This document shows positions 47 to 31,970 of a stretch of DNA of 59,873 nucleotides, one piece after another (position 1 is the first letter of the stretch; every line of letters starts with the position of its first letter). This DNA is from a virus. A program made the translations under genes and the position numbers. The stretch lies in UHGV virus genome UHGV-0015476; one strand, given 5' to 3'. The notes below the pieces were generated by a model. It was not told where the DNA came from and did no database searches. It worked only from the letters and a program-made list of their open reading frames with translations.

Positions 47-177
47 AGCACTGGCCGCCAATAAACGATATTATAGGAAGAGCACAATCTTTTGTCAATG
101 GCATACTTTGAATAAAGTCCCGACGGAGCCGAGATTTTCTTCAAAGCATGACTTACATTGTCTTTTATTTTTTTCTC

Positions 178-202
178 CGCGAATTTATCAGCGGCTATTA
201 TG
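178..202 (+). promoter_or_regulatory. Conserved 25-nt element CGCGAA-N12-TATTATG (copy 1 of 10); candidate promoter.
   Basis: tCTCCGCGAATTTATCAGCGGCTATTATGGG; the 12-nt spacing is exact in all copies. Confidence 0.5.
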
Positions 203-237
203 GGTGCCTGGATTAAATTTAGGAGGGAGTTGAAACG

Positions 238-312
238 ATGATAGCAATAGCAGGAGCTGTGCTGATTGGTGTCGGAGCTTTGATGATCGCCAAATGGATC
301 AAGGACAACTAA
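238..312 (+). CDS. Tiny hydrophobic peptide, 24 aa (MIAIAGAVLIGVGALMIAKWIKDN).
   Basis: RBS GGAGGGAG sits 8 nt upstream of the ATG. The ORF is below the ORF-track size cutoff and is followed by a terminator hairpin. Confidence 0.3.
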   Translation: MIAIAGAVLIGVGALMIAKWIKDN

Positions 313-317
313 AAAAT

Positions 318-349
318 AAAGAGGCCGGTTGCAAGGTCTCTTTATTTTT
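318..349 (+). terminator. Rho-independent terminator-like hairpin: 7-bp stem, GGTTGCAA loop, T-tract. Member of a TTGCAA-loop hairpin family.
   Basis: AAGAGGCC-GGTTGCAA-GGTCTCTT followed by TATTTTTG. Confidence 0.5.
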
Positions 350-360
350 GTCGCTTCTGA

Positions 361-397
361 CTCTAATCTAGGTTAGAATTCTATCTTAGGTTAGAAA
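361..397 (+). promoter_or_regulatory. Direct repeat TAGGTTAGAA x2 flanking a GAATTC-centred palindrome. Putative operator.
   Basis: ctAGGTTAGAAttctatctTAGGTTAGAAatc; it lies in the non-coding leader of the first sizeable gene. Confidence 0.3.
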
Positions 398-465
398 TCG
401 GAGGTGGCTCTTGCGTTTTTGGGGTTCGTGGGCCGCCCGGGAGACGGTGATATTTTTGCTGTCTT

Positions 466-506
466 TAGAATAGAATAGAGAATAGAGAATAGAGAATAGA
501 ATAGGA
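466..506 (+). repeat. Tandem AATAG / AATAGAG micro-repeats (~6 units) abutting the RBS of gene 516-923.
   Basis: tagaatagaatagagaatagagaatagagaatagaatagg, directly followed by AGGAGG. Confidence 0.7.
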
Positions 507-515
507 GGAAAAATT

Positions 516-923
516 ATGGGCACCGTTATACGCCCCGAGGTATCAAGTAAGAATACCTACTATATTTTAAGACATCGCTATTACGAACTCAAACACTTCT
601 GTTTGCAATATCCAGAGTGGAAGCAGGAGTACCGTTCTTTGGATGGACTTCCATCGCGGTCTGCAAGCGGTATAGAACATGTAACCGGAGGCTCGGTTCC
701 AGATCCAACCGCGCTTTATGCAGAGGCGCGAATTTACTACAGAGACAGGATGAACATGGTCGAGACAGCCGCACGAGATGCCGTTGGCGATCTTGCGAAT
801 CTCATGTTGAGGGCCGTTACAGAGGGCGTTTCCTATGAGCATATTTCTCCACCATGCTGTAAGGAAGTCTGGTACACCGCATACAGACGTTTCTTCTGGC
901 TCCTTGACAAAGCGCGAAAATAA
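516..923 (+). CDS. Hypothetical protein, 135 aa. Possible phage transcription regulator (RHRYYELKHF helix motif).
   Basis: ORF with RBS AGGAGG. It is the first sizeable gene after the att-proximal regulatory repeats. Confidence 0.5.
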   Translation: MGTVIRPEVSSKNTYYILRHRYYELKHFCLQYPEWKQEYRSLDGLPSRSASGIEHVTGGSVPDPTALYAEARIYYRDRMNMVETAARDAVGDLANLMLRAVTEGVSYEHISPPCCKEVWYTAYRRFFWLLDKARK

Positions 924-937
924 CACCGGCTATTGTG
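913..937 (+). promoter_or_regulatory. Conserved 25-nt element (copy 2), with TATTGTG variant.
   Basis: CGCGAAAATAACACCGGCTATTGTGAAGGAGG. Confidence 0.45.
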
Positions 938-952
938 AAGGAGGGGTTGAAT

Positions 953-1138
953 ATGTCACTAAACTTTTCGGACGGATTCCTGTTTGCGATTGGCTGGATT
1001 GTAGCCAAGGTTGCCATACGCTATGCAGCAAGCTTCACCAATGAGTTGCTGTATCAGTTGTGGCCGCGGTACAGAGCATTTATGGACGAACAGGACCGAA
1101 AGAAACATCCATGGCGGTATCCTTCCCCGTACAATTAA
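953..1138 (+). CDS. Hypothetical small membrane protein, 61 aa.
   Basis: RBS AGGAGGGG lies 6 nt before ATG 953. A TM-like stretch (GFLFAIGWIVAKVAI) is present and a terminator follows. Confidence 0.5.
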   Translation: MSLNFSDGFLFAIGWIVAKVAIRYAASFTNELLYQLWPRYRAFMDEQDRKKHPWRYPSPYN

Positions 1139-1145
1139 AAGGTTT

Positions 1146-1176
1146 AGAGCCCGATTGCAAGGGCTCTTTCCTTTTG
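1146..1176 (+). terminator. Rho-independent terminator (AGAGCCC-GATTGCAA-GGGCTCT plus T-rich tail). An identical hairpin recurs at 6456.
   Basis: 7-bp perfect stem and a T-rich tail. Confidence 0.6.
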
Positions 1177-1233
1177 AAAAACAGTACGCAGGTGACGAAA
1201 ACCTGTGATATTATGATAAGGAGGAAATTCAAA

Positions 1234-1470
1234 ATGGAGATCTGGTTCTGGGGGATCGGCGGGTTGGTTCTCGGATTATTGCTTGGCTTCGGTTTATCAG
1301 CTGTTATTAAACGTGAAAAGCCGGTTGGAACGCTTCGGGTGGATCGATCTGATCCGGAAGAGGCGCCCTATTTGTTTTTGGAGCTCGAACAGGACGGCAT
1401 GGACAAAATCCACAAAGCCAAGACGGTCGTCTTTAAGGTCGATTTGAGGAGTTATCTGGCGCGAAATTAG
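1234..1470 (+). CDS. Hypothetical membrane protein, 78 aa.
   Basis: RBS AGGAGGAAA lies 7 nt before the ATG. An N-terminal TM helix (IWFWGIGGLVLGLLLGFGL) is present. Confidence 0.55.
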   Translation: MEIWFWGIGGLVLGLLLGFGLSAVIKREKPVGTLRVDRSDPEEAPYLFLELEQDGMDKIHKAKTVVFKVDLRSYLARN

Positions 1471-1484
1471 CACCCGCTATTATG
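1460..1484 (+). promoter_or_regulatory. Conserved 25-nt element (copy 3).
   Basis: CGCGAAATTAGCACCCGCTATTATGGAG. Confidence 0.5.
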
Positions 1485-1512
1485 GAGTAATCCATAAAAA
1501 CTGAAAGGAGAA

Positions 1513-1920
1513 ATGAGGATGAATGCGACGATTGCGATGATGCTGGATGAGGAATACGAGAGGACTCTCGAAGCGGTATCTCAGGCGCAGATCGGAAGTG
1601 AGGAAGCCAAATGGCAGTTGCAGAAGCTGGGCGAGCTTCACAAGCAGCGGATGAACGAGGCCAAATTGCGCGGCGACGGCATCCTTCAGGACGAAGAACT
1701 CAAATTGAAGAAGAGGGAAGCATCGATGAAGGAAGAGCAGACGAAGGAGAGCAAGAAGGATCGGATCATCAAGATTGTGCTTGATGGAGCGGCCATTCTG
1801 GTGCCTGTCACGGTTTCCAGCTACTGGATGGCGAAGGGATTGAAGTTCGAGCAGACCGGGACGTTTACATCCCGCACCGGTCAATGGTTGAGCAGTCACC
1901 TCAGACTGTTCAAGAAGTGA
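1513..1920 (+). CDS. Hypothetical protein, 135 aa, with a coiled-coil-like N-terminus and a C-terminal hydrophobic segment.
   Basis: RBS AAAGGAG precedes it; alternative start at 1519. Confidence 0.55.
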   Translation: MRMNATIAMMLDEEYERTLEAVSQAQIGSEEAKWQLQKLGELHKQRMNEAKLRGDGILQDEELKLKKREASMKEEQTKESKKDRIIKIVLDGAAILVPVTVSSYWMAKGLKFEQTGTFTSRTGQWLSSHLRLFKK

Positions 1921-1934
1921 TTAGGAGACTCAAA

Positions 1935-1976
1935 GAGAGGGCTCGTGTAGGATACACGGGCTCTTTCTTTTTTGCT
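1935..1976 (+). terminator. Terminator-like hairpin with a T-tract.
   Basis: GCTCGTGTA-GGA-TACACGGGC followed by TCTTTCTTTTTTG. Confidence 0.5.
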
Positions 1977-1980
1977 CCTC

Positions 1981-2005
1981 CGCGCTAAAAACACCGGCTA
2001 TTATG
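1981..2005 (+). promoter_or_regulatory. Conserved 25-nt element (copy 4), with CGCGCT variant.
   Basis: CGCGCTAAAAACACCGGCTATTATGAAAAACCC. Confidence 0.45.
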
Positions 2006-2036
2006 AAAAACCCACTACATGAAAGGAAGGATCAAC

Positions 2037-2306
2037 ATGGCTAAAAGGGTGTATCTGTATGCATTCAACAATGTATGGAAAATCGTGGACACGAAGTTTC
2101 TGGAAGGAGATGCGATCTCGGTGCGGGACATGCTGCAACTGGCAAACTGGATGAAGGGTGTAAATCCCGGTCAAGTTGCCGTGTATGCGGTGGATAACCG
2201 GCCGGGACTCTACAAGGAATTCATGGAAGCTGTCAAAACCAAGGATTTCACCAAACACGTTGAATTCGCAGACCTCGTCAGCCGGGAAGGCATCCTAATC
2301 GAGTAA
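2037..2306 (+). CDS. Hypothetical protein, 89 aa.
   Basis: RBS GAAAGGAAGG lies 6 nt before ATG 2037, in frame with ORF 2019. Confidence 0.55.
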   Translation: MAKRVYLYAFNNVWKIVDTKFLEGDAISVRDMLQLANWMKGVNPGQVAVYAVDNRPGLYKEFMEAVKTKDFTKHVEFADLVSREGILIE

Positions 2307-2322
2307 GTTTACCAAGGGAGCG

Positions 2323-2348
2323 AGCCTTGCAAAGGCTTTTCCCTTTCG
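2323..2348 (+). terminator. Terminator-like hairpin AGCCTT-GCA-AAGGCT followed by TTTCCCTTTCG.
   Basis: 6-bp stem with a TTGCAA-type centre. Confidence 0.4.
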
Positions 2349-2403
2349 CAATATATGCTCTGGTATTTCTAAAGGTTGAGGCCTACATGGCCTCTTCTTT
2401 TTT

Positions 2404-2775
2404 ATGGAGGATCATGTGCGTTATCATTATGAGAAGCCGGGTTTCTATACAAGTCAGTACGGCGAGGTTTATATTTGCGACCATCCGGTTTACAACCGCT
2501 GTACGCTCTATAAAATTGGAGAAAAGGGTCTGGCTGTAATCCAGCAGCGGGTTGACATGGCCACTAAAACCACCTGGTGGGGCGAGATCGACGCGTGGGT
2601 GACGGATGCAATCTATTTGCATGCGGGCTTCAGGAAGCTGTTTGAGGAGCGGGCCAGGCCGAGTAAGGACGGTCTATTCCCCACGATCACCGTAAGGCAG
2701 ATCATGTGGGCACTGAAGATGAAGCCGCTTCCAAAGCAATGCTGGGAAACGGTATTTGACCGGAAAGATATTTAG
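2404..2775 (+). CDS. Hypothetical protein, ~120 aa; possible GTG start at 2416.
   Basis: RBS GGAGGA is immediately upstream. Confidence 0.5.
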   Translation: MEDHVRYHYEKPGFYTSQYGEVYICDHPVYNRCTLYKIGEKGLAVIQQRVDMATKTTWWGEIDAWVTDAIYLHAGFRKLFEERARPSKDGLFPTITVRQIMWALKMKPLPKQCWETVFDRKDI

Positions 2776-2800
2776 CGCGAAATAAACATGATCTATTATG
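2776..2800 (+). promoter_or_regulatory. Conserved 25-nt element (copy 5).
   Basis: CGCGAAATAAACATGATCTATTATGAGGAGG. Confidence 0.5.
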
Positions 2801-2815
2801 AGGAGGCGATTCGCT

Positions 2816-3076
2816 ATGACGAATCTGTGGTCATTTTTGTGGAGGTATGAACTCTGTGGTTTGGCGTTTACGGTGCTGTGTGCTGCGATCAACGTAGTGT
2901 TTGTCTATCGGACCCATTCGGATGAAAAAGTGAAGAAGTTTTATAACACGGACAACTTTGAGCTTAATCCGAAGTGGCCGAAGGCGGTGACTATGTGGTT
3001 GCTGTTCTGGCCTGTCGTGACAATCTACAGGATGCTCGATCAAACGCATAAATTTGAGAACTGGATTCATAGCTGA
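2816..3076 (+). CDS. Hypothetical membrane protein, 86 aa, with two TM segments.
   Basis: RBS GAGGAGG lies 9 nt before ATG 2816. TM segments are CGLAFTVLCAAINVVFV and VTMWLLFWPVVTI. Confidence 0.55.
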   Translation: MTNLWSFLWRYELCGLAFTVLCAAINVVFVYRTHSDEKVKKFYNTDNFELNPKWPKAVTMWLLFWPVVTIYRMLDQTHKFENWIHS

Positions 3077-3086
3077 TCTAAACGAG

Positions 3087-3115
3087 CGAAAGGCAATGCA
3101 AAGCCTTTTCGCTTT
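3087..3115 (+). terminator. Weak terminator-like hairpin with an AATGCAA loop.
   Basis: GCGAAAGGC-AATGCA-AAGCCTTTTCGC; the U-tract is poor. Confidence 0.35.
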
Positions 3116-3140
3116 CGCGATATAAACACCCGCTATTATG
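3116..3140 (+). promoter_or_regulatory. Conserved 25-nt element (copy 6).
   Basis: CGCGATATAAACACCCGCTATTATGGAAACCCC. Confidence 0.5.
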
Positions 3141-3170
3141 GAAACCCCACTATGAAAGGAGTAGTTGGAA

Positions 3171-3449
3171 ATGGCAAAAAAAAAAACAAACGGTTTGGAA
3201 AATCTGGGCGGCGCTGTAATTGACCAAGCGATCAGGGACTACATCAAGACCAAACTCGATCTGGAGAAGGCCTTCGATATGTTGGAGGAATTGCAGGACT
3301 TCTTTGAAGGGAATGACTATGAGTTCTGGTGTACGGTAAACAAACGGCAAATAAAGGGCAAGGAGATCATGAACCGTTGTGACGAAGTCGTGGAAAAGAA
3401 ACTGAAGACGTGGCGGAAGAGACGTGAAAAGGAGACGACTGCTGTATAA
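3171..3449 (+). CDS. Hypothetical protein, 92 aa, basic C-terminus.
   Basis: RBS AAAGGAG upstream; ATG 3171 is in frame with ORF 3165. Confidence 0.55.
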   Translation: MAKKKTNGLENLGGAVIDQAIRDYIKTKLDLEKAFDMLEELQDFFEGNDYEFWCTVNKRQIKGKEIMNRCDEVVEKKLKTWRKRREKETTAV

Positions 3450-3469
3450 GCAGCCTCTCTTCTTTTCTC

Positions 3470-3494
3470 CGCGAAAATTGCAGCGACTATTATG
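3470..3494 (+). promoter_or_regulatory. Conserved 25-nt element (copy 7).
   Basis: CTCCGCGAAAATTGCAGCGACTATTATGGAATC. Confidence 0.5.
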
Positions 3495-3532
3495 GAATCA
3501 ATGACTTTACTGAAATGAAGGAGGACTTGACA

Positions 3533-3664
3533 ATGAGTATTCTTAGCTTCATTTTCTTTGGTTTCCTGAGCGTGGTCGCTGTGGTAGGCTGCGTCAGGGC
3601 CGGGAAACTGTTGGTGAGGGCAATCAACGGACTGTTTGACAAAATTGAGGAGAAGATCGGTTGA
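3533..3664 (+). CDS. Small membrane peptide, 43 aa.
   Basis: RBS GAAGGAGGA lies 8 nt before the ATG. TM segment ILSFIFFGFLSVVAVVG. Below the ORF-track cutoff. Confidence 0.45.
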   Translation: MSILSFIFFGFLSVVAVVGCVRAGKLLVRAINGLFDKIEEKIG

Positions 3665-3746
3665 GATCAGAGAATTAGGAGCCGAAGCGCAGGCAAAACG
3701 CAACGGCTCTTGTTCTTTTGAAATTTATATTTGGAGGGAACGAAAA

Positions 3747-4145
3747 ATGAAGAGCTTTGTGAGTGCTGTGGTCGGCGGAGCAGTCGGTGTGATTGCCTTG
3801 TATGTGGTTGGGCGCGTGGCTTATCAGGCCGGACACGATATGGCCCAGGCAGAGCAGCACTATGAAGAAGTGCGCAAGAAGACGGAAGCACTGGAATCCT
3901 CCCATAAGGAAAACGGTGGACATATCGAATCGGCCGTTGAGGAAGAGCCGAAGGAAATGACCATTGTGGAGCCTGTCCCCATGCGCAAGCAGAATAAGCT
4001 TGGCTTGGTGATGGGGCTCAAGCGATTGATGAGCAAGAAAGAAAGTGTGCTTGGCCGGCTTGTACATCATCCTGAAGATCATCGCATCGAGGCCTTTGTC
4101 GACGGAGATGAGCTGAAAGTGAGCGTAAAGCCTCGAACCGCGTGA
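3747..4145 (+). CDS. Hypothetical membrane-anchored protein, 132 aa.
   Basis: RBS TTGGAGGGAA precedes it. N-terminal TM segment VSAVVGGAVGVIALYVVG. Confidence 0.55.
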   Translation: MKSFVSAVVGGAVGVIALYVVGRVAYQAGHDMAQAEQHYEEVRKKTEALESSHKENGGHIESAVEEEPKEMTIVEPVPMRKQNKLGLVMGLKRLMSKKESVLGRLVHHPEDHRIEAFVDGDELKVSVKPRTA

Positions 4146-4193
4146 TCTGCATATCCTTTAATGGAATCACATACGAAAGGAGCGATGTGAAAA

Positions 4194-4550
4194 ATGAAAA
4201 TCCACGTGGTACCGGACCCGAATGAAACGAAATTTCAGCGATTCAAAAGGGAGGTGAAAGCAAGATGCGAGGAACTCGGTGACTGGTTTAACAGGAACAA
4301 GGAAGCAGTGCTTGTTCTGACGCCGGTTGTGATCGGAGGCATAACGACCGTATGCAAGGTTGTTGGCAGACGGATCAACCTGCACAAGGAAGAAGCGGTG
4401 AAAAACCTGTACTGCTACGACCGGTCGCTGGGTCATTACTGGTGTTTACGCCGTGAGCTTTCCAACAAGGAATGGCTGGAAATCGACCAGAGGAAGAAAA
4501 ACGGTGAGCGGCTGAGCGATATTCTGGCTGAACTCAAAGTTTTGAAGTGA
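4194..4550 (+). CDS. Hypothetical protein, 118 aa.
   Basis: RBS AAAGGAGCGATG; followed by a strong terminator. Confidence 0.55.
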   Translation: MKIHVVPDPNETKFQRFKREVKARCEELGDWFNRNKEAVLVLTPVVIGGITTVCKVVGRRINLHKEEAVKNLYCYDRSLGHYWCLRRELSNKEWLEIDQRKKNGERLSDILAELKVLK

Positions 4551-4566
4551 TTCCAGAGCGAGGAGA

Positions 4567-4604
4567 CAATACAACGTCTCTTCGCTTTTATATTTTGAGA
4601 GGAG
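4567..4604 (+). terminator. Rho-independent terminator with a 10-bp stem (GCGAGGAGAC / GTCTCTTCGC) and TTTTATATTTT.
   Basis: Long stem plus T-tract. Confidence 0.65.
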
Positions 4605-4613
4605 TGATGCGAC

Positions 4614-4817
4614 ATGATCTTTCCCTTGTGTTTCATGATCGGCGGACTGCTACTGACCTGGTTCCTCGAGGATTATTTCCGAGAAGGGAAACCGGAAATG
4701 CGCGGGCTTGTTAAGGAGAGCCGTGAGAATGAACGCAGACGCATGATGCACCGCAATTCTTATTGCCAGCGCGGTTGGATGCCGTCCAGACAGCGAAGCT
4801 GGAAAGGAGCAAAGTAA
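4614..4817 (+). CDS. Hypothetical protein, 67 aa; N-terminal TM helix and basic C-terminus.
   Basis: RBS GAGAGGAG; the stop overlaps the next start (TAATG). Confidence 0.5.
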   Translation: MIFPLCFMIGGLLLTWFLEDYFREGKPEMRGLVKESRENERRRMMHRNSYCQRGWMPSRQRSWKGAK

Positions 4818-5005
4818 TGGAAAAAGAATATATCGGTTCAGCAATTCCCACAAGCTGCGACGTATGCGAACATGCAGTCGATGGCTTTTACGTCGGTTCG
4901 ATGTGTGAACTGACTGAAGAAGAGGTGCTGACCGAACAACACAAGAAGACGAGATGTAAGAGCTGCCCATTGTGTAAAGGAGGAAACGAAAACCAAGAGC
5001 ATTAA
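4817..5005 (+). CDS. Small Zn-ribbon protein, 62 aa (CDVC...CKSCPLC).
   Basis: RBS GGAAAGGAG lies 7 nt before ATG 4817; two CxxC pairs. Confidence 0.5.
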   Translation: MEKEYIGSAIPTSCDVCEHAVDGFYVGSMCELTEEEVLTEQHKKTRCKSCPLCKGGNENQEH

Positions 5006-5081
5006 GATTTCACAGAAGCACGGTGTAAACCCCACCATCCCGATTTGCTTCTGGTGTGGAAAAGAAAAGAACGCGATTGCT

Positions 5082-5399
5082 TTGCTGGGCAAGCTGCCTG
5101 GCGACGCGGAAGCGCCGAGATCGACCTGGCTGATGGACGACTACGAGCCCTGCGACGCTTGCAAGGAATTGCGCAAACAGGGAATCGACCTGATCGAGGC
5201 GACGGATCATCCGGTTGCTCATCCAAAGCAGCCGCAGTATCACGGCGCTTACCCGACAGGCAGACATATCATCTTATCGGAACATGGCATTCGAGCAATA
5301 TTCTCGCCCGAAGTGGCAGATGATTTGTGCAAACGAAGGGTCGGTTTTGTTGACAGCGAAACATTTTCGAAGCTGCAAGCAATTATTGGAAAGGATTGA
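5082..5399 (+). CDS. Zn-ribbon protein (C-x2-C ... C-x2-C). The annotated ATG probably truncates an N-terminal extension that holds the first CxxC.
   Basis: The open frame extends upstream to 4932 and encodes ...ICFWCGKEK... with no canonical start. A CDAC motif lies downstream. Confidence 0.45.
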   Translation: MLGKLPGDAEAPRSTWLMDDYEPCDACKELRKQGIDLIEATDHPVAHPKQPQYHGAYPTGRHIILSEHGIRAIFSPEVADDLCKRRVGFVDSETFSKLQAIIGKD

Positions 5400-6211
5400 T
5401 GCGCATGACTATCGGAGGTTGGATGAAAAAGAACGGTTCCACCATCCTGACCTGTCTTGGCGCTGGCGGTGTGATAGCGACCGTCATACTGGCGGTCCGG
5501 GCTACGCCCAGGGCGATGGGTAAGATTCAGACCGCGCGGATCGACAAAGGAAAAGAGATTCTTAACGGCGATTGCAAAGGAGAAGTCAAAAAGAATGGCG
5601 ACGGCAGCTATGAACTGCCCAAACTGACTGTGGCGGAAACCGTTGAGGTTTGCTGGACGGAGTATATACCTGCCGCGGCCATCGGCGTCGGTTCACTGGC
5701 ATGCATATTCGGCGCAAACATCCTCAGCAGAAGGCAGCAGGCATCTCTGGCCAGTGCGTACACGGCTCTCGCCGGTTCCTTTGAGGCCTATCGCGATAAG
5801 GTAGAGACGCTGTGCGGGCCGGGTACGAACGCCGCAGTTGAGAAAGCCGTCAAGCAGGAGAAGAAGGACGCCGAGGAGGATCGTCCGCCGTGGGACGAAG
5901 TGCAGACCTTCTACTTCGATGCGAACAGCCATCCTCAGTTCTTTGAGCGAACGATGGAGCAGGTCATGCGGGCGGAATACAACATCAACCGAAACCTGAT
6001 CCTGCGAGGCTACGTCTCCCTCAATGAATTTCTGGGATTCCTTGGGCTGGACTCTGTCGAGGGCGGAGAATTGATCGGCTGGGATCAGTATTATGGCGAG
6101 ACCGAGTATGGTTATCATTGGATCGATTTCAACCATCGCCATTACAGAACCGACGACGGATTGCTGGTCTGCTCGATTGAAACGCCCTTTGGACCGCATC
6201 CATATAACTGA
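5396..6211 (+). CDS. Paralog A of a triplicated two-TM membrane protein family. Likely start at 5399 or 5423.
   Basis: N-terminal TM helix, a second hydrophobic segment, and conserved A..AY.A...SF..YR..V and LNEF..LGL....G..LGW blocks shared with ORFs 6870 and 9765. Confidence 0.7.
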   Translation: MMRMTIGGWMKKNGSTILTCLGAGGVIATVILAVRATPRAMGKIQTARIDKGKEILNGDCKGEVKKNGDGSYELPKLTVAETVEVCWTEYIPAAAIGVGSLACIFGANILSRRQQASLASAYTALAGSFEAYRDKVETLCGPGTNAAVEKAVKQEKKDAEEDRPPWDEVQTFYFDANSHPQFFERTMEQVMRAEYNINRNLILRGYVSLNEFLGFLGLDSVEGGELIGWDQYYGETEYGYHWIDFNHRHYRTDDGLLVCSIETPFGPHPYN

Positions 6212-6220
6212 CAATCTTCC

Positions 6221-6245
6221 CGCGAATAAAACAGCGGCTATTATG
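6221..6245 (+). promoter_or_regulatory. Conserved 25-nt element (copy 8).
   Basis: CCCGCGAATAAAACAGCGGCTATTATGGAAACCC. Confidence 0.5.
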
Positions 6246-6275
6246 GAAACCCATATTGGAAAAGGAGGAATCATC

Positions 6276-6449
6276 ATGAAAAAAGGAAAGAAGATCGACA
6301 CGCTCAAGGCATTGGGCATTGGAGCGACGGTGCTTGGACTGGCAGCGAGCCTGTTTTCAAGCTTTGTCGAGGACAAGAAGACCGATGCTAAGATTGCGGA
6401 GAAGGTCAACAAAGCTGTGATGACCGCACTGGAAAAGAAGGAATCCTAA
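6276..6449 (+). CDS. Small single-TM protein, 57 aa.
   Basis: Preceded by copy 8 of the 25-nt element and RBS AAAGGAGGAA. TM segment LKALGIGATVLGLAASLF. Confidence 0.5.
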   Translation: MKKGKKIDTLKALGIGATVLGLAASLFSSFVEDKKTDAKIAEKVNKAVMTALEKKES

Positions 6450-6455
6450 AGGAGT

Positions 6456-6487
6456 AAGAGCCCGATTGCAAGGGCTCTTTTCTTTTG
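6456..6487 (+). terminator. Rho-independent terminator, identical hairpin to 1146 (AAGAGCCC-GATTGCAA-GGGCTCTT), followed by a T-tract.
   Basis: 8-bp stem plus TTCTTTTGG. Confidence 0.6.
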
Positions 6488-6544
6488 GCTTAAGGGAGCC
6501 CAAAGGGCGAGGCCGAAAAAGAAAAAGGAGGCGCGAGATCGGGC

Positions 6545-6889
6545 ATGACGCGGGAAGAAGCGATATCGTTGCTGCGAAGGTATCGCAGAGTGGCGTATCG
6601 ATACAACGCAAAATTCATCATATTCCCAAAGCGGAATACATTGTTTCAGACCTGTATATACGGCAGCTTTCTGATTGATGAGATGATTCGGAAAATCCGA
6701 TGCGCCACGGATGACCCCATCGAAGTCGTCTATAAGATTTACTCAGACCTGGACTGGGTTTTGGGCGAATCAGATGACGATCACTTTGAAACGCACAGGT
6801 TCGCGGCTCTGATGGAACATGAGGCCGGGAACATTCTGAGGTATCTGAAGACTGGTGAAAGGGAGCAAAATGAAGATGCAGAAAATTGA
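6545..6889 (+). CDS. Hypothetical protein, 114 aa.
   Basis: RBS GGAGGCG upstream; overlaps the start of paralog B by 20 nt. Confidence 0.5.
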   Translation: MTREEAISLLRRYRRVAYRYNAKFIIFPKRNTLFQTCIYGSFLIDEMIRKIRCATDDPIEVVYKIYSDLDWVLGESDDDHFETHRFAALMEHEAGNILRYLKTGEREQNEDAEN

Positions 6890-7661
6890 TTGGAAAGGAA
6901 TCGGCGACAACATCCTGCGGACCCTGAAGCGCAAATCTCCCGAAATCCTGACAGGCGTTGGGATCGGGGGCATGATAACGACGACCGTATTGGCGGTAAA
7001 GGCGACGCCTGAAGCAATGCGGAGAATTGAGGCCAGGAAGAAAGCCGAGCATCACAAGAAGCTGACGGCCGCTCAAACGATCCAGACTGCCTGGAAGTGC
7101 TATATTTCGGCGGGCGTAACCGGCACCGTGTCCGTGGCCTGCCTGATCGGAGCGAGCACGCTGAACGGGCGTCGGAACGCGGCACTGGCGACGGCTGCCG
7201 GGCTGGCGGAGACGAGCCTGAGGGAGTACCGCGCAAAGGTGGTTGAGACGCTTGGGGAAAAGAAGGAATCCGCGATTCTGGACGCCATCGACCGCGACCG
7301 GGTCGAACGCAATCCGCCCCCGGCGAGTACGGACGAGCCGCCCGTTGTGGAAGGATCCGCCGGACAGACGCTGTGCTATGACAGCATGTTCGGTCGGTAT
7401 TTCTATTCCGACGTAGAGACGCTCAAGCGGGTGGAGAATAAACTGAACCGGCAGATGGCGACGATGAGCGAACCTTATATTTCCCTCAATGAATTCTATA
7501 TGGAGATTGGACTGCCCACTGTGGATATTGGTGATGATCTCGGGTGGAATGTGAGCGACGGCATGATCGAGCTGAGGTTTTCCAGCCAGCTTGTCAATGG
7601 TCGGACGCCATGCCTTGTGGTGAGTCATCTGGTTCCCCCGACATACGACTATAACAAATGA
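6870..7661 (+). CDS. Paralog B of the two-TM membrane protein family, 263 aa.
   Basis: RBS GAAAGGGAG upstream. Shares SPEILTGVGIGGMITTTVLAVKATPEAM and LNEFYMEIGL...LGW blocks with A and C. Confidence 0.7.
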   Translation: MKMQKIDWKGIGDNILRTLKRKSPEILTGVGIGGMITTTVLAVKATPEAMRRIEARKKAEHHKKLTAAQTIQTAWKCYISAGVTGTVSVACLIGASTLNGRRNAALATAAGLAETSLREYRAKVVETLGEKKESAILDAIDRDRVERNPPPASTDEPPVVEGSAGQTLCYDSMFGRYFYSDVETLKRVENKLNRQMATMSEPYISLNEFYMEIGLPTVDIGDDLGWNVSDGMIELRFSSQLVNGRTPCLVVSHLVPPTYDYNK

Positions 7662-7711
7662 AGTGCCAAGTGGCTGGTCGCAAACGGGTAGGGCGAAGCG
7701 GAGTCAATGTC

Positions 7712-7736
7712 CGCGAAATTTTCAAGGCGCTTTATG
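7712..7736 (+). promoter_or_regulatory. Conserved 25-nt element (copy 9), with CTTTATG variant.
   Basis: CCGCGAAATTTTCAAGGCGCTTTATGAAGGG. Confidence 0.45.
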
Positions 7737-8149: not shown

Positions 8150-8419
8150 ATGAGTCAGCGTGCATCCGTGCGAACGATTGCCAAAGCCCGGCTTAAGGCC
8201 ATGGGCGTTCCTCACGTAAACAAGGTAATGGGTTTGGGACTGTCCCATACCGGTAACCAGAACATGCAGCGCACCAGCCAAGGCCGCAAGCAGCTGGCGG
8301 AGATCCAGAAGCAGCACCAGCCCGTGTGGCGTCGCGTAACCTGTGGCAGCCTGGCTGCGGACGGCTATCTCGCCCAGATGGGCATTGGCGGGAAACGTCG
8401 GTTTCGCGTCGCGAATTGA
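8150..8419 (+). CDS. Hypothetical basic protein, 89 aa.
   Basis: RBS AAAGGAGAAATG. Confidence 0.5.
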   Translation: MSQRASVRTIAKARLKAMGVPHVNKVMGLGLSHTGNQNMQRTSQGRKQLAEIQKQHQPVWRRVTCGSLAADGYLAQMGIGGKRRFRVAN

Positions 8420-8525
8420 GGGAGGAGCAGCGCGACGACTAAGCTGGACAAAATGATATTTTGCCGGCTGCACCCGCGGGCCGCTGAAAGCGAGCACGGG
8501 GCGAATGAAAAGGAGGACACCATTC

Positions 8526-19108: not shown

Positions 19109-19153
19109 ATACGCGTTTTTTACAAATCCTTTTGCGAAAGGAGGTGTTCTTAA

Positions 19154-27141: not shown

Positions 27142-27148
27142 AATCCGT

Positions 27149-27463: not shown

Positions 27464-27552
27464 ATTTGGCCACAAGCTAAAAATCGACCATTTAGAAGGA
27501 GGAATGCGATAAGACCAACTTTCTATTTTCAAAACCCCCTAACCAAGGTTCG

Positions 27553-27919: not shown

Positions 27920-27937
27920 TATTCTCCAAGTTTCAAG

Positions 27938-27970
27938 AGCCTGTGTGCGAAACACGGGCTTTTTCCTTTC
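27938..27970 (+). terminator. Rho-independent terminator (AGCCTGTG-TGCGAAA-CACGGGCT followed by TTTTCCTTTC).
   Basis: 8-bp stem including a G-U pair, then a T-tract. Confidence 0.55.
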
Positions 27971-27971
27971 C

Positions 27972-27996
27972 CGCGAAAAAAACATGCCCTTTTATG
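27972..27996 (+). promoter_or_regulatory. Conserved 25-nt element (copy 10). It lies upstream of the VRR-NUC / nuclease / RNAP genes and carries a TTTTATG variant.
   Basis: CCCGCGAAAAAAACATGCCCTTTTATGAAGAG, located just after a terminator hairpin. Confidence 0.45.
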
Positions 27997-28050
27997 AAGA
28001 GAGAAGACAATATGCGCCTTCTCTTTTTTCTTTTGCAATGAGGAGGGCTT

Positions 28051-28353
28051 ATGAAAGGACGAAAGCTGGAGCGCAATTTTCAGGCGTCTCTGATTCGGGA
28101 ATTGAAAAAGCGGTTCAGCGGATGCATCGTCACCAAGCTGGACTCATCGCACATTCAGGGCATTCCTGATCTTTTGATTCTCTGGGGAAAACATTGGGCC
28201 ACGCTGGAATGCAAAAAAAGCGCCAGAGCGCACCGGCAGCCCAATCAGGAGCATTATGTCAATCTGATGAACGACATGTCCTTTTCAAGATTTATATTTC
28301 CGGAGAACAAGGAGGAAGTCCTGCATGAATTGGAACAGGCATTCAGACCTTGA
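28051..28353 (+). CDS. VRR-NUC domain nuclease.
   Basis: E..Q..LI..L...KLDSSHIQGIPDLLILWGKHWATLECKK is a PD-(D/E)xK motif (PDL...ECK) in a VRR-NUC-sized protein. Confidence 0.7.
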   Translation: MKGRKLERNFQASLIRELKKRFSGCIVTKLDSSHIQGIPDLLILWGKHWATLECKKSARAHRQPNQEHYVNLMNDMSFSRFIFPENKEEVLHELEQAFRP

Positions 28354-28882
28354 GGGAAGCCATGCGTTCCTGAGCGCTAGCAAGTATCATTGGATCAACT
28401 ATGATGCCGATAAGCTGGCCGACAGTTACAAGAATTTTATGGCGACCCTGAAGGGAACCGAACTGCATGAATTCGCCAGCCGCTGCATCACCCTTGGGCA
28501 GAAGTTGCCCAAAAGCCAGAAGACGCTGAATATGTTTGTGAACGACGCCATCGGCTACAAGATGCAGAGCGAGCAGGTGCTCTACTATTCCGAGAATTGC
28601 TACGGCACCGCGGACGCTATCGCCTTTCGAAACGGGATGCTTCGCATTCACGACCTGAAAACTGGCAAGGTGCTGGCGCACATGGAGCAGCTGATGGTGT
28701 ACGCCGCGCTGTTCTGTTTGGAATACAAGGTGAAGCCCGGCGATATTCAGATGGAGCTGCGGCTTTACCAGAATGATGAAGTGATATTTCACAACCCCGA
28801 AGCAGACGAGATCGTTCCCATCATCGACAAGATCATCGCCTTTGATAAAGTTATCAATCGAATCAAAGAAGAGGAGGGCTGA
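28325..28882 (+). CDS. PD-(D/E)XK family nuclease, 185 aa.
   Basis: GTADAIAF ... LRIHDLKTGK (D...D-x-K) motif. RBS AAGGAGGAAG lies 8 nt upstream. Confidence 0.5.
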   Translation: MNWNRHSDLEGSHAFLSASKYHWINYDADKLADSYKNFMATLKGTELHEFASRCITLGQKLPKSQKTLNMFVNDAIGYKMQSEQVLYYSENCYGTADAIAFRNGMLRIHDLKTGKVLAHMEQLMVYAALFCLEYKVKPGDIQMELRLYQNDEVIFHNPEADEIVPIIDKIIAFDKVINRIKEEEG

Positions 28883-28884
28883 CC

Positions 28885-31710
28885 ATGAATTGGATTGCGC
28901 AGCAGATGCGGGATATTCTGGAAGGTCGGACTCGACTTTCCGAAAACGGCGAATTGATGCATTACGGAAAATCCAAGATGGATGGCGCTCCGGGCCGCGG
29001 TTCCGGCCGATATCCGTTAGGCAGCGGCGAAGACCCGAACCAGCATCGCGGCGATTTGATTTCCCGTGTGCAGGAGCTTCGGCGAAAGGGTATGAGTGAA
29101 AAAGACATTGCTGAGGCGATTGGGTATTCTTCCTCCACTCAGCTGAGAAGCGCCTATTCCAACGCCATCAATGAACGCCGCGCTACGCAGATTTCTTCTG
29201 CCCGCGCCATGCTGGCAGACGGAAAGACCCAGGCCCAGGTGGCCAGAGCGCTTAGTGTCAATGAGTCCACGCTCCGTTCCCTGCTCAATGAGCGTTCCGA
29301 GGCCCGCACCAACGCGGCCAAAGCAACGGCAGATTTTCTGAAGGCACAGATCGATTCAAAGGGTATGATCGATGTCGGTACCGGCGTGGAGCTGGAGCTT
29401 GGCGTGAGCCGGGAAAAGCTGAATCAGGCTTTGGCAATGCTGGAAGACGAAGGATATGTGGTCTATGGCGGCGGCGTGCCGCAGGCGACGAATCCGGGCA
29501 AACAAACCAACATCAAGGTCATTTGCCCGCCAGGAACCGAGCATAAAGAGATTTATGACTTCAAGAACGTGCATACGGTCACAGACTATAAGATGCGCGT
29601 GGACGAAGACGGCACCGAGCACTTTGAGAAGGGGTTTGAATACCCCGCTTCCATGGATTCCAGCCGACTGATGATTCGCTTCCGCGATGATGTCGCGCCT
29701 GATGGTCATACCGGTGTCGAGAAGGATGGCACCATTGAGATCCGGCGCGGTGTGGACGATCTGAGCCTTGGCGACAGCCGCTATGCGCAGGTTCGCATTC
29801 TGGTGGATGGAAACAAATACCTTAAAGGAATGGCATACTATTCGGACGACATGCCAGATGGCGTGGATGTGGTTTTCAATACCAACAAGACGCCCGATCA
29901 GGCGAATAAGGTGCTGAAAATCATCAAGAGCGATCCGAACAATCCTTTCGGCGCTTTGCTGCGGGAAGAGGGCGGCCAGTATCACTACACGGATCCCGAA
30001 ACCGGCGAGCGCAAGCTGGGTCTCATCAACAAGACCAGAACCGAGGGCGACTGGGGCGATTGGGCGGATGCGCTGCCGAGCCAGTTCCTCTCCAAGCAGA
30101 GTATGCAGCTCATTCAGAAACAGCTTGGTATGTCCATCGCGGATAAACAGGCCGAGTTTGATGAGATCACGGCGCTGACTAACCCAACGGTAAAGAAACA
30201 GCTGCTGGCGACTTTCGCCAATGACTGCGATTCGGCCGCCGTTCATTTGCAGGCCGCGGCTCTGCCCAGGCAGAAGTATCAGGTAATCCTTCCTATTGCT
30301 ACCATGAAGGATGACGAGGTCTATGCCCCCAATTATCATGATGGTGAAACGGTGGCGCTGATCCGGTATCCGCATGGCGGTACATTCGAAATCCCGATCC
30401 TGACGGTGAACAACAAGCAGCCGGACGGCATTCGGATTCTCGGCAGCACTCCTGCCGATGCCATTGGCATCAACAGCAAGGTTGCGGAGCGTCTGTCTGG
30501 GGCGGACTTCGATGGCGATACCGTCATGGTCATTCCATGCAACAGCCCGAGGAGCAACGTGAAGATCACCTCTACACCGCCGCTCAAGGGGCTGGAAGGC
30601 TTTGACCCTAAGATGGAATATGGCTCCAGCAGAACCGAGACCGACGCCAATGGAAAGACACACTACTTCCGGGATGGCCATGAGTTCAAGGTGATGAGCA
30701 ACACCCAGATGGAGATGGGCAAGATATCCAATCTGATTACCGACATGACGCTGAAAGGCGCCAGTCAGGACGAGTTGGCCCGTGCCGTCCGTCATTCCAT
30801 GGTTGTTATCGATGCCGAGAAGCACAAGCTGGACTGGAAGCAGAGCGAGCAGGACAATGGCATTGCGGGCCTGAGAAAGAAGTATCAGGAGCGCGCAGAT
30901 GAAGACGGTAACCTGCATTACGGCGCAAGCACCCTGATCTCCAGAGCCAAGTCTCCTGTATCGGTACTTAAGCGCAAAGGTTCCCCAAAGATCAATCCCG
31001 ACACCGGCGAGCTTGAGTACAAGACCGTAGAGGAGACCTATACGGATAAGAAAGGCAAGACTAAAGTTCGCACCCAGGATTCGACGCTGATGGCGGAAAC
31101 GAAGGACGCGCGTAGGCTTTCTTCCGGCACTCCCCAAGAAGAGGCTTATGCCGACTACGCGAACCGGATGAAGGCTATGGCCAACGCCGCACGCAAAGAA
31201 ATGCTTCGCGCCGGCAAGATAGAGTACAGCAGCAGCGCTAAGGAAACCTACCGTGAAGAAGTGGGCGACCTGGAACGCCAGCTGAAGAAAGCTTTGATGA
31301 ACGCACCTCGTGAACGTCAGGCTCAGCTTGCCGCCAACAGCGAAGTCAAGGCTATGAAGAAAGCCAATCCTGATATGACTAGCAAAGAGGTTAAGAAAAA
31401 AGGACAGCAGGCGCTTAGCAGAAACCGTATCAAATATGGCGCGCAGCGTTATGCAATCAGCATCTCACCCCGTCAATGGCAGGCAATTCAGTCTGGGGCA
31501 GTGAGTGAGAATCTGTTGACCAAGATCCTTCGCTTTGCCGATCAAGATCAGGTCAGAGCCTATGCGACTCCTCGCGCAACAACTTCCCTGTCTGCGGGAA
31601 AACAGGCAAGAATCCGGGCAATGCGTAGCTCAGGATACACCACCAGTCAGATTGCAGCTGCACTCGGCGTGGCTACTTCGACTGTCACCAAATACATGAA
31701 AGGAGAGTGA
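28885..31710 (+). CDS. YonO-like non-canonical single-chain RNA polymerase. It has two double-psi beta-barrels homologous to the beta and beta' subunits of multisubunit RNAPs. HTH modules flank the core; the C-terminal one is sigma-70 region 4-like.
   Basis: Beta-like barrel: VDGNKYLKGMAYYSDDMPDGVDVVFNTNKTP, compared with RHGNKGV..EDMP..VDIVLNP in bacterial beta. Beta'-like barrel: ALIRYPHGGTFEIP...GADFDGDTVMVIP, compared with NRAPTLHR...NADFDGDQMAVH. C-terminal LSAGKQARIRAMRSSGYTTSQIAAALGVATSTVTKYMK is sigma-r4-like. Confidence 0.8.
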   Translation: MNWIAQQMRDILEGRTRLSENGELMHYGKSKMDGAPGRGSGRYPLGSGEDPNQHRGDLISRVQELRRKGMSEKDIAEAIGYSSSTQLRSAYSNAINERRATQISSARAMLADGKTQAQVARALSVNESTLRSLLNERSEARTNAAKATADFLKAQIDSKGMIDVGTGVELELGVSREKLNQALAMLEDEGYVVYGGGVPQATNPGKQTNIKVICPPGTEHKEIYDFKNVHTVTDYKMRVDEDGTEHFEKGFEYPASMDSSRLMIRFRDDVAPDGHTGVEKDGTIEIRRGVDDLSLGDSRYAQVRILVDGNKYLKGMAYYSDDMPDGVDVVFNTNKTPDQANKVLKIIKSDPNNPFGALLREEGGQYHYTDPETGERKLGLINKTRTEGDWGDWADALPSQFLSKQSMQLIQKQLGMSIADKQAEFDEITALTNPTVKKQLLATFANDCDSAAVHLQAAALPRQKYQVILPIATMKDDEVYAPNYHDGETVALIRYPHGGTFEIPILTVNNKQPDGIRILGSTPADAIGINSKVAERLSGADFDGDTVMVIPCNSPRSNVKITSTPPLKGLEGFDPKMEYGSSRTETDANGKTHYFRDGHEFKVMSNTQMEMGKISNLITDMTLKGASQDELARAVRHSMVVIDAEKHKLDWKQSEQDNGIAGLRKKYQERADEDGNLHYGASTLISRAKSPVSVLKRKGSPKINPDTGELEYKTVEETYTDKKGKTKVRTQDSTLMAETKDARRLSSGTPQEEAYADYANRMKAMANAARKEMLRAGKIEYSSSAKETYREEVGDLERQLKKALMNAPRERQAQLAANSEVKAMKKANPDMTSKEVKKKGQQALSRNRIKYGAQRYAISISPRQWQAIQSGAVSENLLTKILRFADQDQVRAYATPRATTSLSAGKQARIRAMRSSGYTTSQIAAALGVATSTVTKYMKGE

Positions 31711-31715
31711 ACGGA

Positions 31716-31970
31716 ATGAACGTGAATGGAAACGTTGCGCTCACAACTTTCGACAATCCATACAATCCGTTCACTCAATTCCAGAAATGGTTCCTGTTTG
31801 ACACGGAAAAAGGATACAACTCATGTGCGTATCTGGCTCGAATCGCACGCACAAGTGATGAACTCACTGAAGAAGAAAATGATGAAGAAATCGAACGTGC
31901 GATTGACGAGATTATTAAGTATGACTTCATGAACAAATACAAGAAAATATACAAAAACGCCAAGAAATAA
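31716..31970 (+). CDS. Hypothetical acidic protein, 84 aa, lower GC.
   Basis: RBS AAAGGAGAG lies 7 nt before ATG 31716. Confidence 0.5.
   Translation: MNVNGNVALTTFDNPYNPFTQFQKWFLFDTEKGYNSCAYLARIARTSDELTEEENDEEIERAIDEIIKYDFMNKYKKIYKNAKK

Follow-up and report, generated by a model that had tools for sequence, protein, structure and literature searches.

The virus UHGV-0015476, a temperate siphovirus of gut Clostridia, carries in front of many of its small genes a 25-nucleotide (nt) element, CGCGAA-N5-CA-N5-TATTATG, and the question raised by this locus is which RNA polymerase (RNAP) reads it. The full genome of 59,873 nt, called the window here, was analysed, and coordinates are window positions unless another genome is named. 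To our knowledge, no promoter is known for the single-chain two-barrel RNAPs of phages, be they of the YonO or of the FP_oengus type. The window encodes such an enzyme of 941 amino acids (aa) at 28885..31710 (+), and polymerase activity has been predicted for this helix-turn-helix (HTH)-flanked protein in a text that does not treat promoters (Koert 2021, bioRxiv 10.1101/842583). New here are the conservation of the element across phyla together with this uncharacterised polymerase, and a build which is unlike that of sigma-70 promoters. We lean towards the reading that the element is a compact T7-style promoter (about −24 to +1) that would be recognised by the RNAP which the phage itself encodes. 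The repeats are most likely the promoters of this enzyme because every phage group sharing the motif encodes the same single-chain RNAP.

A search of both strands with at most two mismatches, accompanied by shuffle controls, returned exactly ten matches (178, 913, 1460, 1981, 2776, 3116, 3470, 6221, 7712 and 27972), all on the plus strand. The shuffle expectation is 0.13 matches, and none of 100 shuffles gave ten. These are the sites listed in an earlier reading made from the letters only (the sequence-only reading), whose central observation is thereby borne out. A position weight matrix (PWM) derived from the ten copies scores them at 30–44 bits; the next best window positions reach 7.3 and 7.1, and the maximum on the minus strand is 1.8. 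Both the CA at motif positions 12–13 and the 12-nt spacing are invariant in the ten copies, as had been stated. The upstream hexamer had been described as CGCGAA or a 1-nt variant of it. It is exact in seven copies and CGCGAT also fits the description, but CGCGCT has two mismatches; one other copy shows hexamer variation. The C in front of the TATTATG-like box (motif position 18), formerly ascribed to all copies, occurs in nine. An SD (Shine-Dalgarno) sequence with start codon follows each copy at a distance of 15–54 nt, and the genes downstream code mostly for small, often membrane, proteins. The motif itself shows neither internal base-pairing nor covariation. A variant in the late region at 34712 (AGCGAAAAGCTTAGGGGCTATTTTTATG) was dropped because it is limited to this phage and overlaps a terminator. 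Furthermore, 5′-terminal hairpins at a fixed offset in all copies were rejected, no sharp peak being found except for the RNAP-operon copies and some copies of FP_oengus. An inverted repeat over TTATG in the manner of an N4-like hairpin promoter was also discarded, since its modest excess (40 vs 28 ± 3.7) is due to the pyrimidine-rich and purine-rich flanks.

The window shares synteny with phage FP_oengus of Faecalibacterium, phage 1706 of Lactococcus and RNAP-bearing phages of Arthrobacter, Gordonia and Streptomyces, the RNAP-bearing group being the "supercluster" of Koert (2021, bioRxiv 10.1101/842583). The common gene order comprises small early genes, primase-polymerase, single-strand annealing protein (SSAP), helicase, endonuclease, exonuclease, RNAP, a protein of about 85 aa and the structural genes. 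Five reference phages were chosen, namely FP_oengus, Circum (Arthrobacter), Kenosha (Gordonia), Scarif (Streptomyces) and 1706 (Lactococcus). One degenerate family-wide expression was scanned on both strands of the six genomes, whose G+C content ranges from 34 to 59%. It found 11 plus-strand copies in the window, 11 in FP_oengus, 9 in Circum, 8 in Kenosha, 11 in Scarif and 7 in 1706, and not a single minus-strand copy in any of them; shuffles of the six genomes gave at most 0.6 copies. In these relatives the motif keeps its orientation and its places relative to the genes. The structural modules of the six genomes contain no copy.

The same strand bias was obtained in larger samples. Eighty IMG/VR loci around RNAP homologues (51–94% identity) hold 86 copies on the gene strand and none on the other, and 30 prophage loci in Clostridia genomes hold 24 and none, respectively. 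In most of these 80 viral and 30 genomic loci a copy of the 27972 type lies about 930 nt 5′ of the RNAP gene. The early regions of 12 relatives contain 46 plus and 2 minus copies at orthologous places, with substitutions mostly at the N positions and at hexamer position 2; the gene content of the cassettes varies among these relatives while the motif copies persist. Each clade has its own variant. FP_oengus possesses about 17 copies of CGCGAAAAAtnCAGnnnnCTTTATGGA, all reading CTTTATG or TTTTATG, and Circum has CGCGTAAATTACAnGGGCTATAATG. Kenosha and Scarif share CGCAnAnATTACAyGnCCTATAATGAGACCCCTAcGAAAGGA, and the 1706 variant is cACAwGTTTTACATAnaCTATAGTAGAAAG. The purely lytic phages Circum, Kenosha, Scarif and 1706 retain the element, and it is therefore not a lysogeny operator.

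Searched by tblastn, the RNAP was found in 250 of 50,697 phage records with proteins 36–50% identical, including FP_oengus, the 1706 group and phages of Arthrobacter, Gordonia, Streptomyces, Rhodococcus, Curtobacterium and Microbacterium (Arthrobacter 95, Gordonia 55, Streptomyces 54, Rhodococcus 4, Microbacterium 4). The 44-nt Kenosha copy matched 157 of the 50,697 records at 937 places (Gordonia 55, Streptomyces 53, Arthrobacter 40, Rhodococcus 4, Microbacterium 4). A search with the 1706 variant yielded the 1706-like phages and one weak partial match (E 0.2, minus strand) in an unannotated faecal contig. Motif-bearing and RNAP-bearing records hence nearly coincide by genus, as judged from the genus counts and from the listed examples other than Arthrobacter phage Paella. 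The element is a family trait which is conserved with the RNAP gene through phages of two phyla.

Prior art on the motif consists of two genome announcements on Gordonia phages of cluster DJ (Vardy, Conley; PMC9671010, PMC10868162). They report five copies of a 50-bp/43-nt intergenic motif "with a TATAAT -10 sigma70 sequence". By its sequence, CGCAnAnATTACAyGnCCTATAATGAGACCCC...GAAAGGA, which is collinear with that of the window motif, this is the element described here; it occupies intergenic sites of the forward strand in the central small-gene region. Copies of Kenosha, a member of cluster DJ, align block for block with those of the window, and one pattern recovers both. The window variant differs in CGCGAA, in TATTATG/CTTTATG and in its 5′ leader. 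As published, the motif was described within single genomes and as a sigma-70 −10, with no link to the RNAP and no comparison beyond cluster DJ. In the literature searched, no publication was found that connects the motif with the RNAP, describes it in phages other than those of cluster DJ or casts doubt on its interpretation as sigma-70.

The build of the element does not agree with such a promoter. At a distance of 16–18 nt the best match to TTGACA reaches at most three of six positions in every one of the ten copies, in line with the earlier remark that a sigma-A −35 is missing, and positions −15/−14 are not TG. The A/T block with the CA was considered as a −35 (TTTACA) and rejected: it lies 5 nt from the hexamer, which is impossible for sigma-70, and no −10 follows 17 nt on. 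A-11 is the most conserved base of sigma-70 −10 elements. In an anchor test, sites were selected by the upstream half only (CGCG[AT]A-N5-CA), which gave 122 unique plus-strand sites. Hexamer position 1 is T with a frequency of 0.70, and position 2, the equivalent of A-11, is A in 0.35, T in 0.42 and G in 0.18; thereafter T 0.92, T 0.84, A 0.93, T 0.91 and G 0.89 follow, then a purine and A. Because these positions and not hexamer position 2 stay fixed, the conserved core is TTATG-R-A. The 23 unique minus-strand anchor matches (28 in all) show no downstream conservation. The actinophage and 1706 variants contain a perfect TATAAT or TATAGT and thus a proper −10 hexamer, which the variants of the Clostridia clade (window type and CTTTAT of FP_oengus) lack. 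Canonical −35/−10 candidates are almost absent from the lytic phages Circum, Kenosha and Scarif. Judged by its sequence, the element is not built like a sigma-70 promoter, and the former interpretation of TATTAT as a sigma-type −10 with a start 7–8 nt downstream found no support.

Constraints on the start site point in the same direction. In 19 of 116 unique copies, among them 913 and 2776 of the window, an SD with a correctly spaced start codon begins 0–3 nt after the final G. In FP_oengus a single base separates the copy at 2910-2934 from a tRNA at 2936-3005 (Rfam 47.9 bits; ARAGORN 2935-3006), and L081 2910-3012 of this phage forms a stand-alone cassette of motif, tRNA and T-tract behind which the next motif copy follows. 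The anticodon loop of this tRNA reads GAT, and the gene is not annotated in the RefSeq record; TCTAGAATAGAATG lies between two motif cassettes at L081 3015-3035. The final G is also the very base at which a conserved hairpin sets in at the copies of the RNAP operon. A sigma-type start 6–8 nt past the hexamer would remove the SD in the 19 copies and truncate the tRNA. Since SDs and tRNA begin 0–3 nt after the final G, we infer that transcription starts at the 3′ end of the motif and not 7–8 nt further. Past the final G the sequence is purine-rich and likewise conserved: actinophages have GAGACCCC, 1706 has GAAAGAAGG and the Clostridia clade has GRA. A similar purine-rich initially transcribed region is found in T7-type promoters.

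A reader of the element must travel with the phage because the motif is kept through hosts of two phyla. All window open reading frames (ORFs) were therefore compared with the five reference genomes by tblastn. Non-structural proteins found in all five are the DUF6353 paralogues, three proteins without assigned function (8526-9137, 12181-12777 and 31707-31970), the DNA polymerase, the helicase, the endonuclease, the exonuclease and the RNAP; the SSAP was found in four, with no match in Circum. The three DUF6353 paralogues, kept in both phyla, lie in the early region (5399-6211, 6855-7661 and 9765-10691). Only the RNAP has DNA-binding domains detectable with Pfam and PHROGs. This agrees with the earlier suggestion of a dedicated phage-encoded reader and makes the RNAP the best candidate. 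The other regulator proposed then, the product of ORF 516-923, was rejected: it matches phrog_11237 only and is common only to FP_oengus-like phages, and the actinophages and 1706 keep the motif without it. ORF 516-923 is the only early gene without a motif copy, and 5′ of it (360-510) direct repeats of TAGGTTAGAA (twice) and a run of (AATAGAG)/(TAGAATAG) units are found. A right-hand, single-subunit RNAP of the T7 type was not seen among the annotated large ORFs, one ORF of 841 aa in the tail module (50499-53024) being unannotated.

The RNAP gave a hit to phrog_4291, "RNA-dependent RNA polymerase" (E=0), a weak one to the Pfam RdRP family and HTH matches at both ends. The catalytic GADFDGD (DFDGD motif) is located at aa 539–545. 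In a Foldseek search with the AlphaFold model (pLDDT 76) QDE-1 was the best hit (E 6e-7), followed by plant RDR2 and Pol IV, then bacterial beta-prime and Rpb1; the TM-scores, at about 0.3, are low, which is to be expected of a model with several domains, and a sequence search of the PDB gave nothing useful. N-terminal HTH matches lie at about aa 69–85 and 113–131, the C-terminal one at aa 917–938. Their recognition helices are nearly invariant across the phyla (E127, S128, R131; T919, A924, G928, S932), the second HTH reading ES(S/T)(V/L)R and the C-terminal HTH (Y)T..(E/Q)(I/V)A..(L)G(V).(S)(T). This conservation of the helices matches the invariance of the motif positions C1, C3, C12, A13, T21 and T24.

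The RNAP gene belongs to an operon that begins with an endonuclease (phrog_93, 28051..28353, +) and continues with an exonuclease (phrog_3953, DUF2800, 28325..28882, +), both present in 5/5 reference phages. The gene of an 87-aa protein (phrog_4303, 31707..31970, +), a possible cofactor, lies directly 3′ of the RNAP gene in all five. Upstream of the operon, at 27141-27470, about nine GCCCACTTTT(G) iterons in both orientations and an AT-rich stretch probably constitute a replication origin. Syntenic iteron clusters exist in 5/5 reference phages (L081 26890-27090, L083 44070-44400, L086 40340-40640, L085 41000-41330, L084 3634-4060). Their repeat varies by phage, from GCCCACTTTT in the window and a similar one in Circum to GCCACTTT in Scarif, TTGTCAAA in Kenosha and ACTTCGGGA in 1706, and for this reason the iterons are a less likely target of the invariant RNAP helices.

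From these data the following mechanism is proposed. The final G would correspond approximately to +1, so that the element would span roughly −24 to +1. The upstream half would be recognised as duplex and consists of C-G/A-C (−24 to −22), a block rich in A and T, and the CA, invariant, at −13/−12; a G+C-rich spacer would separate it from an initiation and melting half T-n-T-W-R-T-G, after which purines follow. The reader would be the phage-encoded 941-aa RNAP, whose three fused HTH modules would contact the upstream half and provide the specificity that sigma or general factors confer on cellular enzymes. Initiation at the element, its reading by this RNAP rather than by the host enzyme and the HTH contact are all three inferred. 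Each copy is expected to drive a short unit, in most cases with genes for a single or a few small proteins that are often membrane proteins, many units being terminated by a hairpin. The copy at 27972 would drive the endonuclease-exonuclease-RNAP operon through a leader hairpin.

Several observations speak against this proposal and partly favour its main alternative, a host-dependent one, in which the TATTAT/TATAAT-like core is a −10 for host sigma-A and the upstream half an auxiliary element, e.g. the site of a phage activator or repressor and possibly of the RNAP-like protein's HTH modules; in this case only late genes, or the priming of replication at the iterons close by, would be left to the phage RNAP. 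We regard this as possible without being likely. Actinobacterial sigma-A can use −10-only promoters, and the core is a perfect TATAAT/TATAGT in the phages of Arthrobacter, Gordonia and Streptomyces and in 1706. The RNAP gene itself stands behind copy 27972, and most copies precede early-looking genes. Hardly any other promoter candidates are available in the lytic relatives, and the RNAP operon adjoins the iterons and the AT-rich region. In addition, YonO transcribes late genes (PMC5467207), and by this analogy copies would be predicted before late genes, though the structural module of the window (32–58 kb) has none; the cluster DJ motif was also read as a sigma-70 −10 (PMC9671010, PMC10868162). 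Copies 913 and 2776 are situated at junctions without a terminator, where their SDs could serve read-through mRNAs. For every member of the family, moreover, initiation at the copies is deduced from sequence. However, a host promoter of this kind would have neither a −35 nor a TGn extension, and in the Clostridia clade the equivalent of A-11 is A in only 35% of the sites and FP_oengus has CTTTAT throughout. If transcription began 7 nt beyond the hexamer, 19 copies would lose their SDs and the FP_oengus tRNA would be truncated, the conserved purines after the G (GAGACCCC in actinophages) are unexpected for a sigma-70 discriminator, and the same 25-nt architecture is maintained across hosts of two phyla.

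Two other explanations keep the element but change its function or its reader. To the idea that it is no promoter, and instead a DNA operator of a phage regulator or an RNA processing or protein-binding signal before each SD, we attach very little probability. Repeats before genes that are strictly strand-specific would suit it, and SPbeta offers a comparison with its repeated SPBRE operators. The three window copies at gene junctions without terminator are transcribed from upstream for that very reason, and the pyrimidine-rich positions 14–20 can often pair with the purine-rich leader or with the SD (40 vs 28 ± 3.7 in a swap control). On the other hand, strong terminators precede four to five copies of the window and many copies in relatives, so that an RNA signal would seldom be transcribed there and the downstream gene would be left promoterless; the motif lacks base-pairing and covariation, and the stand-alone motif-tRNA-terminator cassette of FP_oengus needs a promoter. 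A shade less probable still is the host core RNAP redirected by an unrecognised phage sigma-like or appropriation factor in the style of T4 MotA/AsiA. In T4 middle promoters the MotA box lies 12 ± 1 bp upstream of the −10, the same geometry as CGCGAA and the hexamer with their 12 nt. The conserved proteins 8526-9137, 12181-12777 and 31707-31970 are candidates without assigned function, the last encoded by the 87-aa gene that always follows the RNAP gene, and an unrecognised DNA-binding fold may be present among them, which also counts against the RNAP as reader. Pfam and PHROGs reveal no sigma, MotA or AsiA signature in these candidates, however, and the explanation retains a sigma-type −10 in conflict with the variability of position 20 and with the start-site constraints, besides sharing the timing problem of the RNAP model.

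This timing problem arises because the RNAP gene lies behind a copy of the element on which the early cassettes would also rely, and a separate source of the first RNAP is needed. In the clade of the window, a host-type extended −10 promoter at 27556-27564 combined with read-through might supply it. Here TGGTATAAT (+) precedes a small Zn-ribbon gene (27599-27919), and then the terminator just 5′ of the operon follows; in the relative L104 a perfect TTGACA-18-TGnTATAAT is located upstream of the RNAP operon. A conserved ignition promoter of host type was nevertheless rejected, as candidates exist in the window, L001, L102 and L104 and have no conserved place in most relatives; this lack of conservation likewise weighs against the proposed mechanism. 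Similar candidates occur elsewhere on the plus strand, namely TTGCAT-16-TGGTATAAT in the late region (33970-33997), 5′ of a signal-peptide-like protein (34043-34687), and an extended −10 candidate TGATATTAT at about 1207-1215, 5′ of gene 1235-1470. In the actinophages, where canonical promoters are almost absent, the TATAAT-like core might double as a host sigma-A site.

As a further option the RNAP might be delivered in the virion. Its conserved N-terminus (L.HYG..R.SGRYPWGSG, also written L.HYG...SGRYPLGSG), modelled with low confidence, aligns with L.HYGVKGMKWGVRR (hhalign probability 91.5%, E 9e-7), a motif also written HHGI[LK]GQRWGVRR and assigned to Pfam DUF7211 (E 5e-5). DUF7211 heads the window proteins 34757-35455 and 37191-37682, which flank the large terminase, as well as Circum gp7 and gp9, five Kenosha proteins near the terminase, FP_oengus gp69 and 1706 ORF7; the proteins so headed are encoded around terminase and portal genes and are otherwise unrelated. 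1706 ORF7 is annotated as "structural protein", and phrog_35934, "virion structural protein", matches via the DUF7211 motif. No mention of DUF7211 was found in the literature. The likeness is a lead towards virion delivery. That the RNAP is a virion protein with its disordered N-terminus, a diverged DUF7211-type motif, as capsid tag, injected with the DNA and transcribing the early cassettes without the host polymerase, seems rather unlikely to us; it would be the manner of N4 or crAss-like phages, here in ordinary siphoviruses of 55–60 kb from Actinobacteria and Firmicutes alike and with a promoter functional in both phyla.

The individual copies, all on the plus strand, are arranged as follows. 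Copy 1 (178..202; CGCGAATTTATCAGCGGCTATTATG) stands behind a bare T-tract and 35 nt 5′ of the gene of a 24-aa membrane peptide (238-312). Copy 2 (913..937), a TATTGTG variant, overlaps the stop of ORF 516-923 and is abutted by the SD AAGGAGG of the gene starting at 953. Copy 3 (1460..1484) overlaps the end of gene 1235-1470, and the next gene starts at 1519. Copy 4 (1981..2005), the CGCGCT variant, is located just 3′ of a terminator hairpin (1932-1973, −25 kcal/mol) before a gene start at 2037. Copy 5 (2776..2800) abuts the stop of gene 2416-2775 and has the SD AGGAGG directly 3′ (gene start 2816). Copy 6 (3116..3140; CGCGAT) lies just 3′ of the hairpin 3084-3115 (gene start 3171) and copy 7 (3470..3494) 3′ of the terminator 3439-3466, in front of a 43-aa membrane peptide (3533). 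A diverged eleventh copy (4139..4163; CGCGTGATCTGCATATCCTTTAATG), 30 nt 5′ of gene 4194-4550, was recovered with the family-wide pattern. Copy 8 (6221..6245) precedes a gene of 57 aa starting at 6276. Copy 9 (7712..7736), with its gene start at 7775, has CTTTATG as throughout FP_oengus, and the relatives L089-L096 retain the orthologous motif copy. The PWM scan gave a weak and uncertain candidate at 19112..19136 (CGCGTTTTTTACAAATCCTTTTGCG), 5′ of the gene at 19154.

Copy 10 (27972..27996) is the most conserved and heads the endonuclease-exonuclease-RNAP operon, so that its earlier placement before the nuclease and RNAP block is correct. Immediately 5′ of it stands a terminator hairpin with T-tract (27935..27971, +). 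At its last G the leader hairpin GAAGAGAGAAG...CCTTCTCTT with T-tract begins (27996..28034, +), of which the outer stem GAAGAGAGA/TCTCTCTT and the shape are kept in most relatives while the loop varies. Hairpin and T-tract suggest attenuated or conditional expression of the operon; the hairpin may be an attenuator or a 5′ stabiliser. Four copies (1981, 3116, 3470 and 27972) stand directly behind a strong hairpin with T-tract and a fifth (178) behind a bare T-tract, whereas copies 913, 1460 and 2776 overlap with the 3′ end of the gene before them. That most copies directly follow a terminator was an overstatement, since it is true of only four to five of the ten; the notion of cassettes of terminator, promoter, ribosome binding site and small gene holds, the copies behaving as cassette promoters.

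All genes of the window are on the plus strand, and a tyrosine integrase is encoded at its end (58560-59726). On the minus strand, positions 1-60 hold a tRNA's 3′ portion (T-arm GGCGGTTCAAATCCGCC, acceptor and CCA) without the 5′ half, which together with the integrase at the other end looks like an attP-like core across the window ends. A perfect TTGACA-17-TATAAT on the minus strand (98..70) points outward into this tRNA part. The closest relatives are found in metagenome-assembled genomes of uncultured Clostridia and Oscillospiraceae, remoter ones as prophages of Lachnospiraceae isolates, e.g. [Ruminococcus] torques ATCC 27756 and Hungatella hathewayi; a DNA-level search of INPHARED with the window gave no close relative. 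Repetitive coding DNA occurs in tail genes (53461-54389, 54921-55188 and 47939-48373). ORF 53263-55344 contains an alanine-rich periodic repeat of 21/147 nt, 108-nt repeats are found among the tail genes, and the tape-measure gene (1967 aa) includes repeats of 198 nt.

An element travelling with its RNAP gene in phages of Clostridia, Lactococcus, Arthrobacter, Gordonia, Streptomyces and Rhodococcus provides a concrete test template, which bears on the self-sufficiency of the RNAP, on the start position and on the question which HTH module reads which half. If the proposal is true, it would explain the early programme of phages whose G+C content differs far from that of their hosts, provide a polymerase and promoter as a compact pair, perhaps usable in either Gram-positive phylum, and correct the sigma-70 reading of the motif in genome announcements. 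The element also frames the puzzle of the origin of the first polymerase, with virion delivery as a lead.

Among known systems, the promoters of T7, T3 and SP6, which extend from about −17 to +6 and are read by the phage single-subunit RNAP, resemble the element in being compact conserved blocks repeated before many genes on one strand and in using no sigma. They also share the order of an A/T-rich upstream region, a specificity part and a TATA-like melting part abutting a purine-rich start, and their units, like those of the window, are often hairpin-terminated. In contrast, the polymerase considered here is a two-barrel enzyme with DFDGD and not of the right-hand T7 fold, the element reaches further upstream (about −24), the early end of the genome is not where the RNAP gene lies and no strong host promoters are evident for it.

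Closer in the type of polymerase is YonO, also a single-chain two-barrel RNAP of a Firmicutes siphovirus, which transcribes the late operon of SPbeta as a DNA-dependent RNAP and whose promoter and cofactors its authors declared to be unknown (Forrest 2017, PMC5467207). Unlike YonO with its one late operon, the window has copies in front of early-type genes, and its enzyme is of the distinct HTH-flanked family (Koert 2021, bioRxiv 10.1101/842583). The SPbeta interval between the published P(YonO) primer-extension primers (L132 about 8333-8574, minus strand) holds TCATTTATGAGGG, with no CGCGAA or CA half upstream in the P(YonO) region. About 150 nt upstream of it, just outside the forward primer, a second such sequence, TCATTTATGAAGG, shares with it the TTTATGR core. 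Homology of P(YonO) to the whole motif was rejected, as only this core is common, with a chance of about one in five by our own estimate; the core in the P(YonO) interval may be taken as a weak lead.

A loose analogue might be seen in the promoters of the AR9/phiKZ nvRNAPs, 5′-AACA-N6-T-A/G(+1) (PMC5449584). They likewise have a short A-C-A at a fixed distance from a T-purine start, no −35 and a reader that is a distant relative of two-barrel RNAPs. They differ in spacing (N6, compared with ACA-N5-TA... or ACA-N11-G here) and in lacking the further upstream half, and the AR9 enzyme reads template-strand uracil via a separate subunit. Finally, T4 is reminiscent of the window in two respects: its PeSL modules combine terminator, promoter and small ORF in a hyperplastic early region, and its MotA-dependent middle promoters place an upstream box 12 nt from a −10-like hexamer. 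Both are served by the host RNAP and sigma-70 through a genuine −10 that has A-11, unlike the element, and no MotA/AsiA homologues were found among the annotated proteins (a subset of the window proteins scanned). As has been proposed for T4 PeSL, recombination between the repeated promoters may also shuffle the cassettes.

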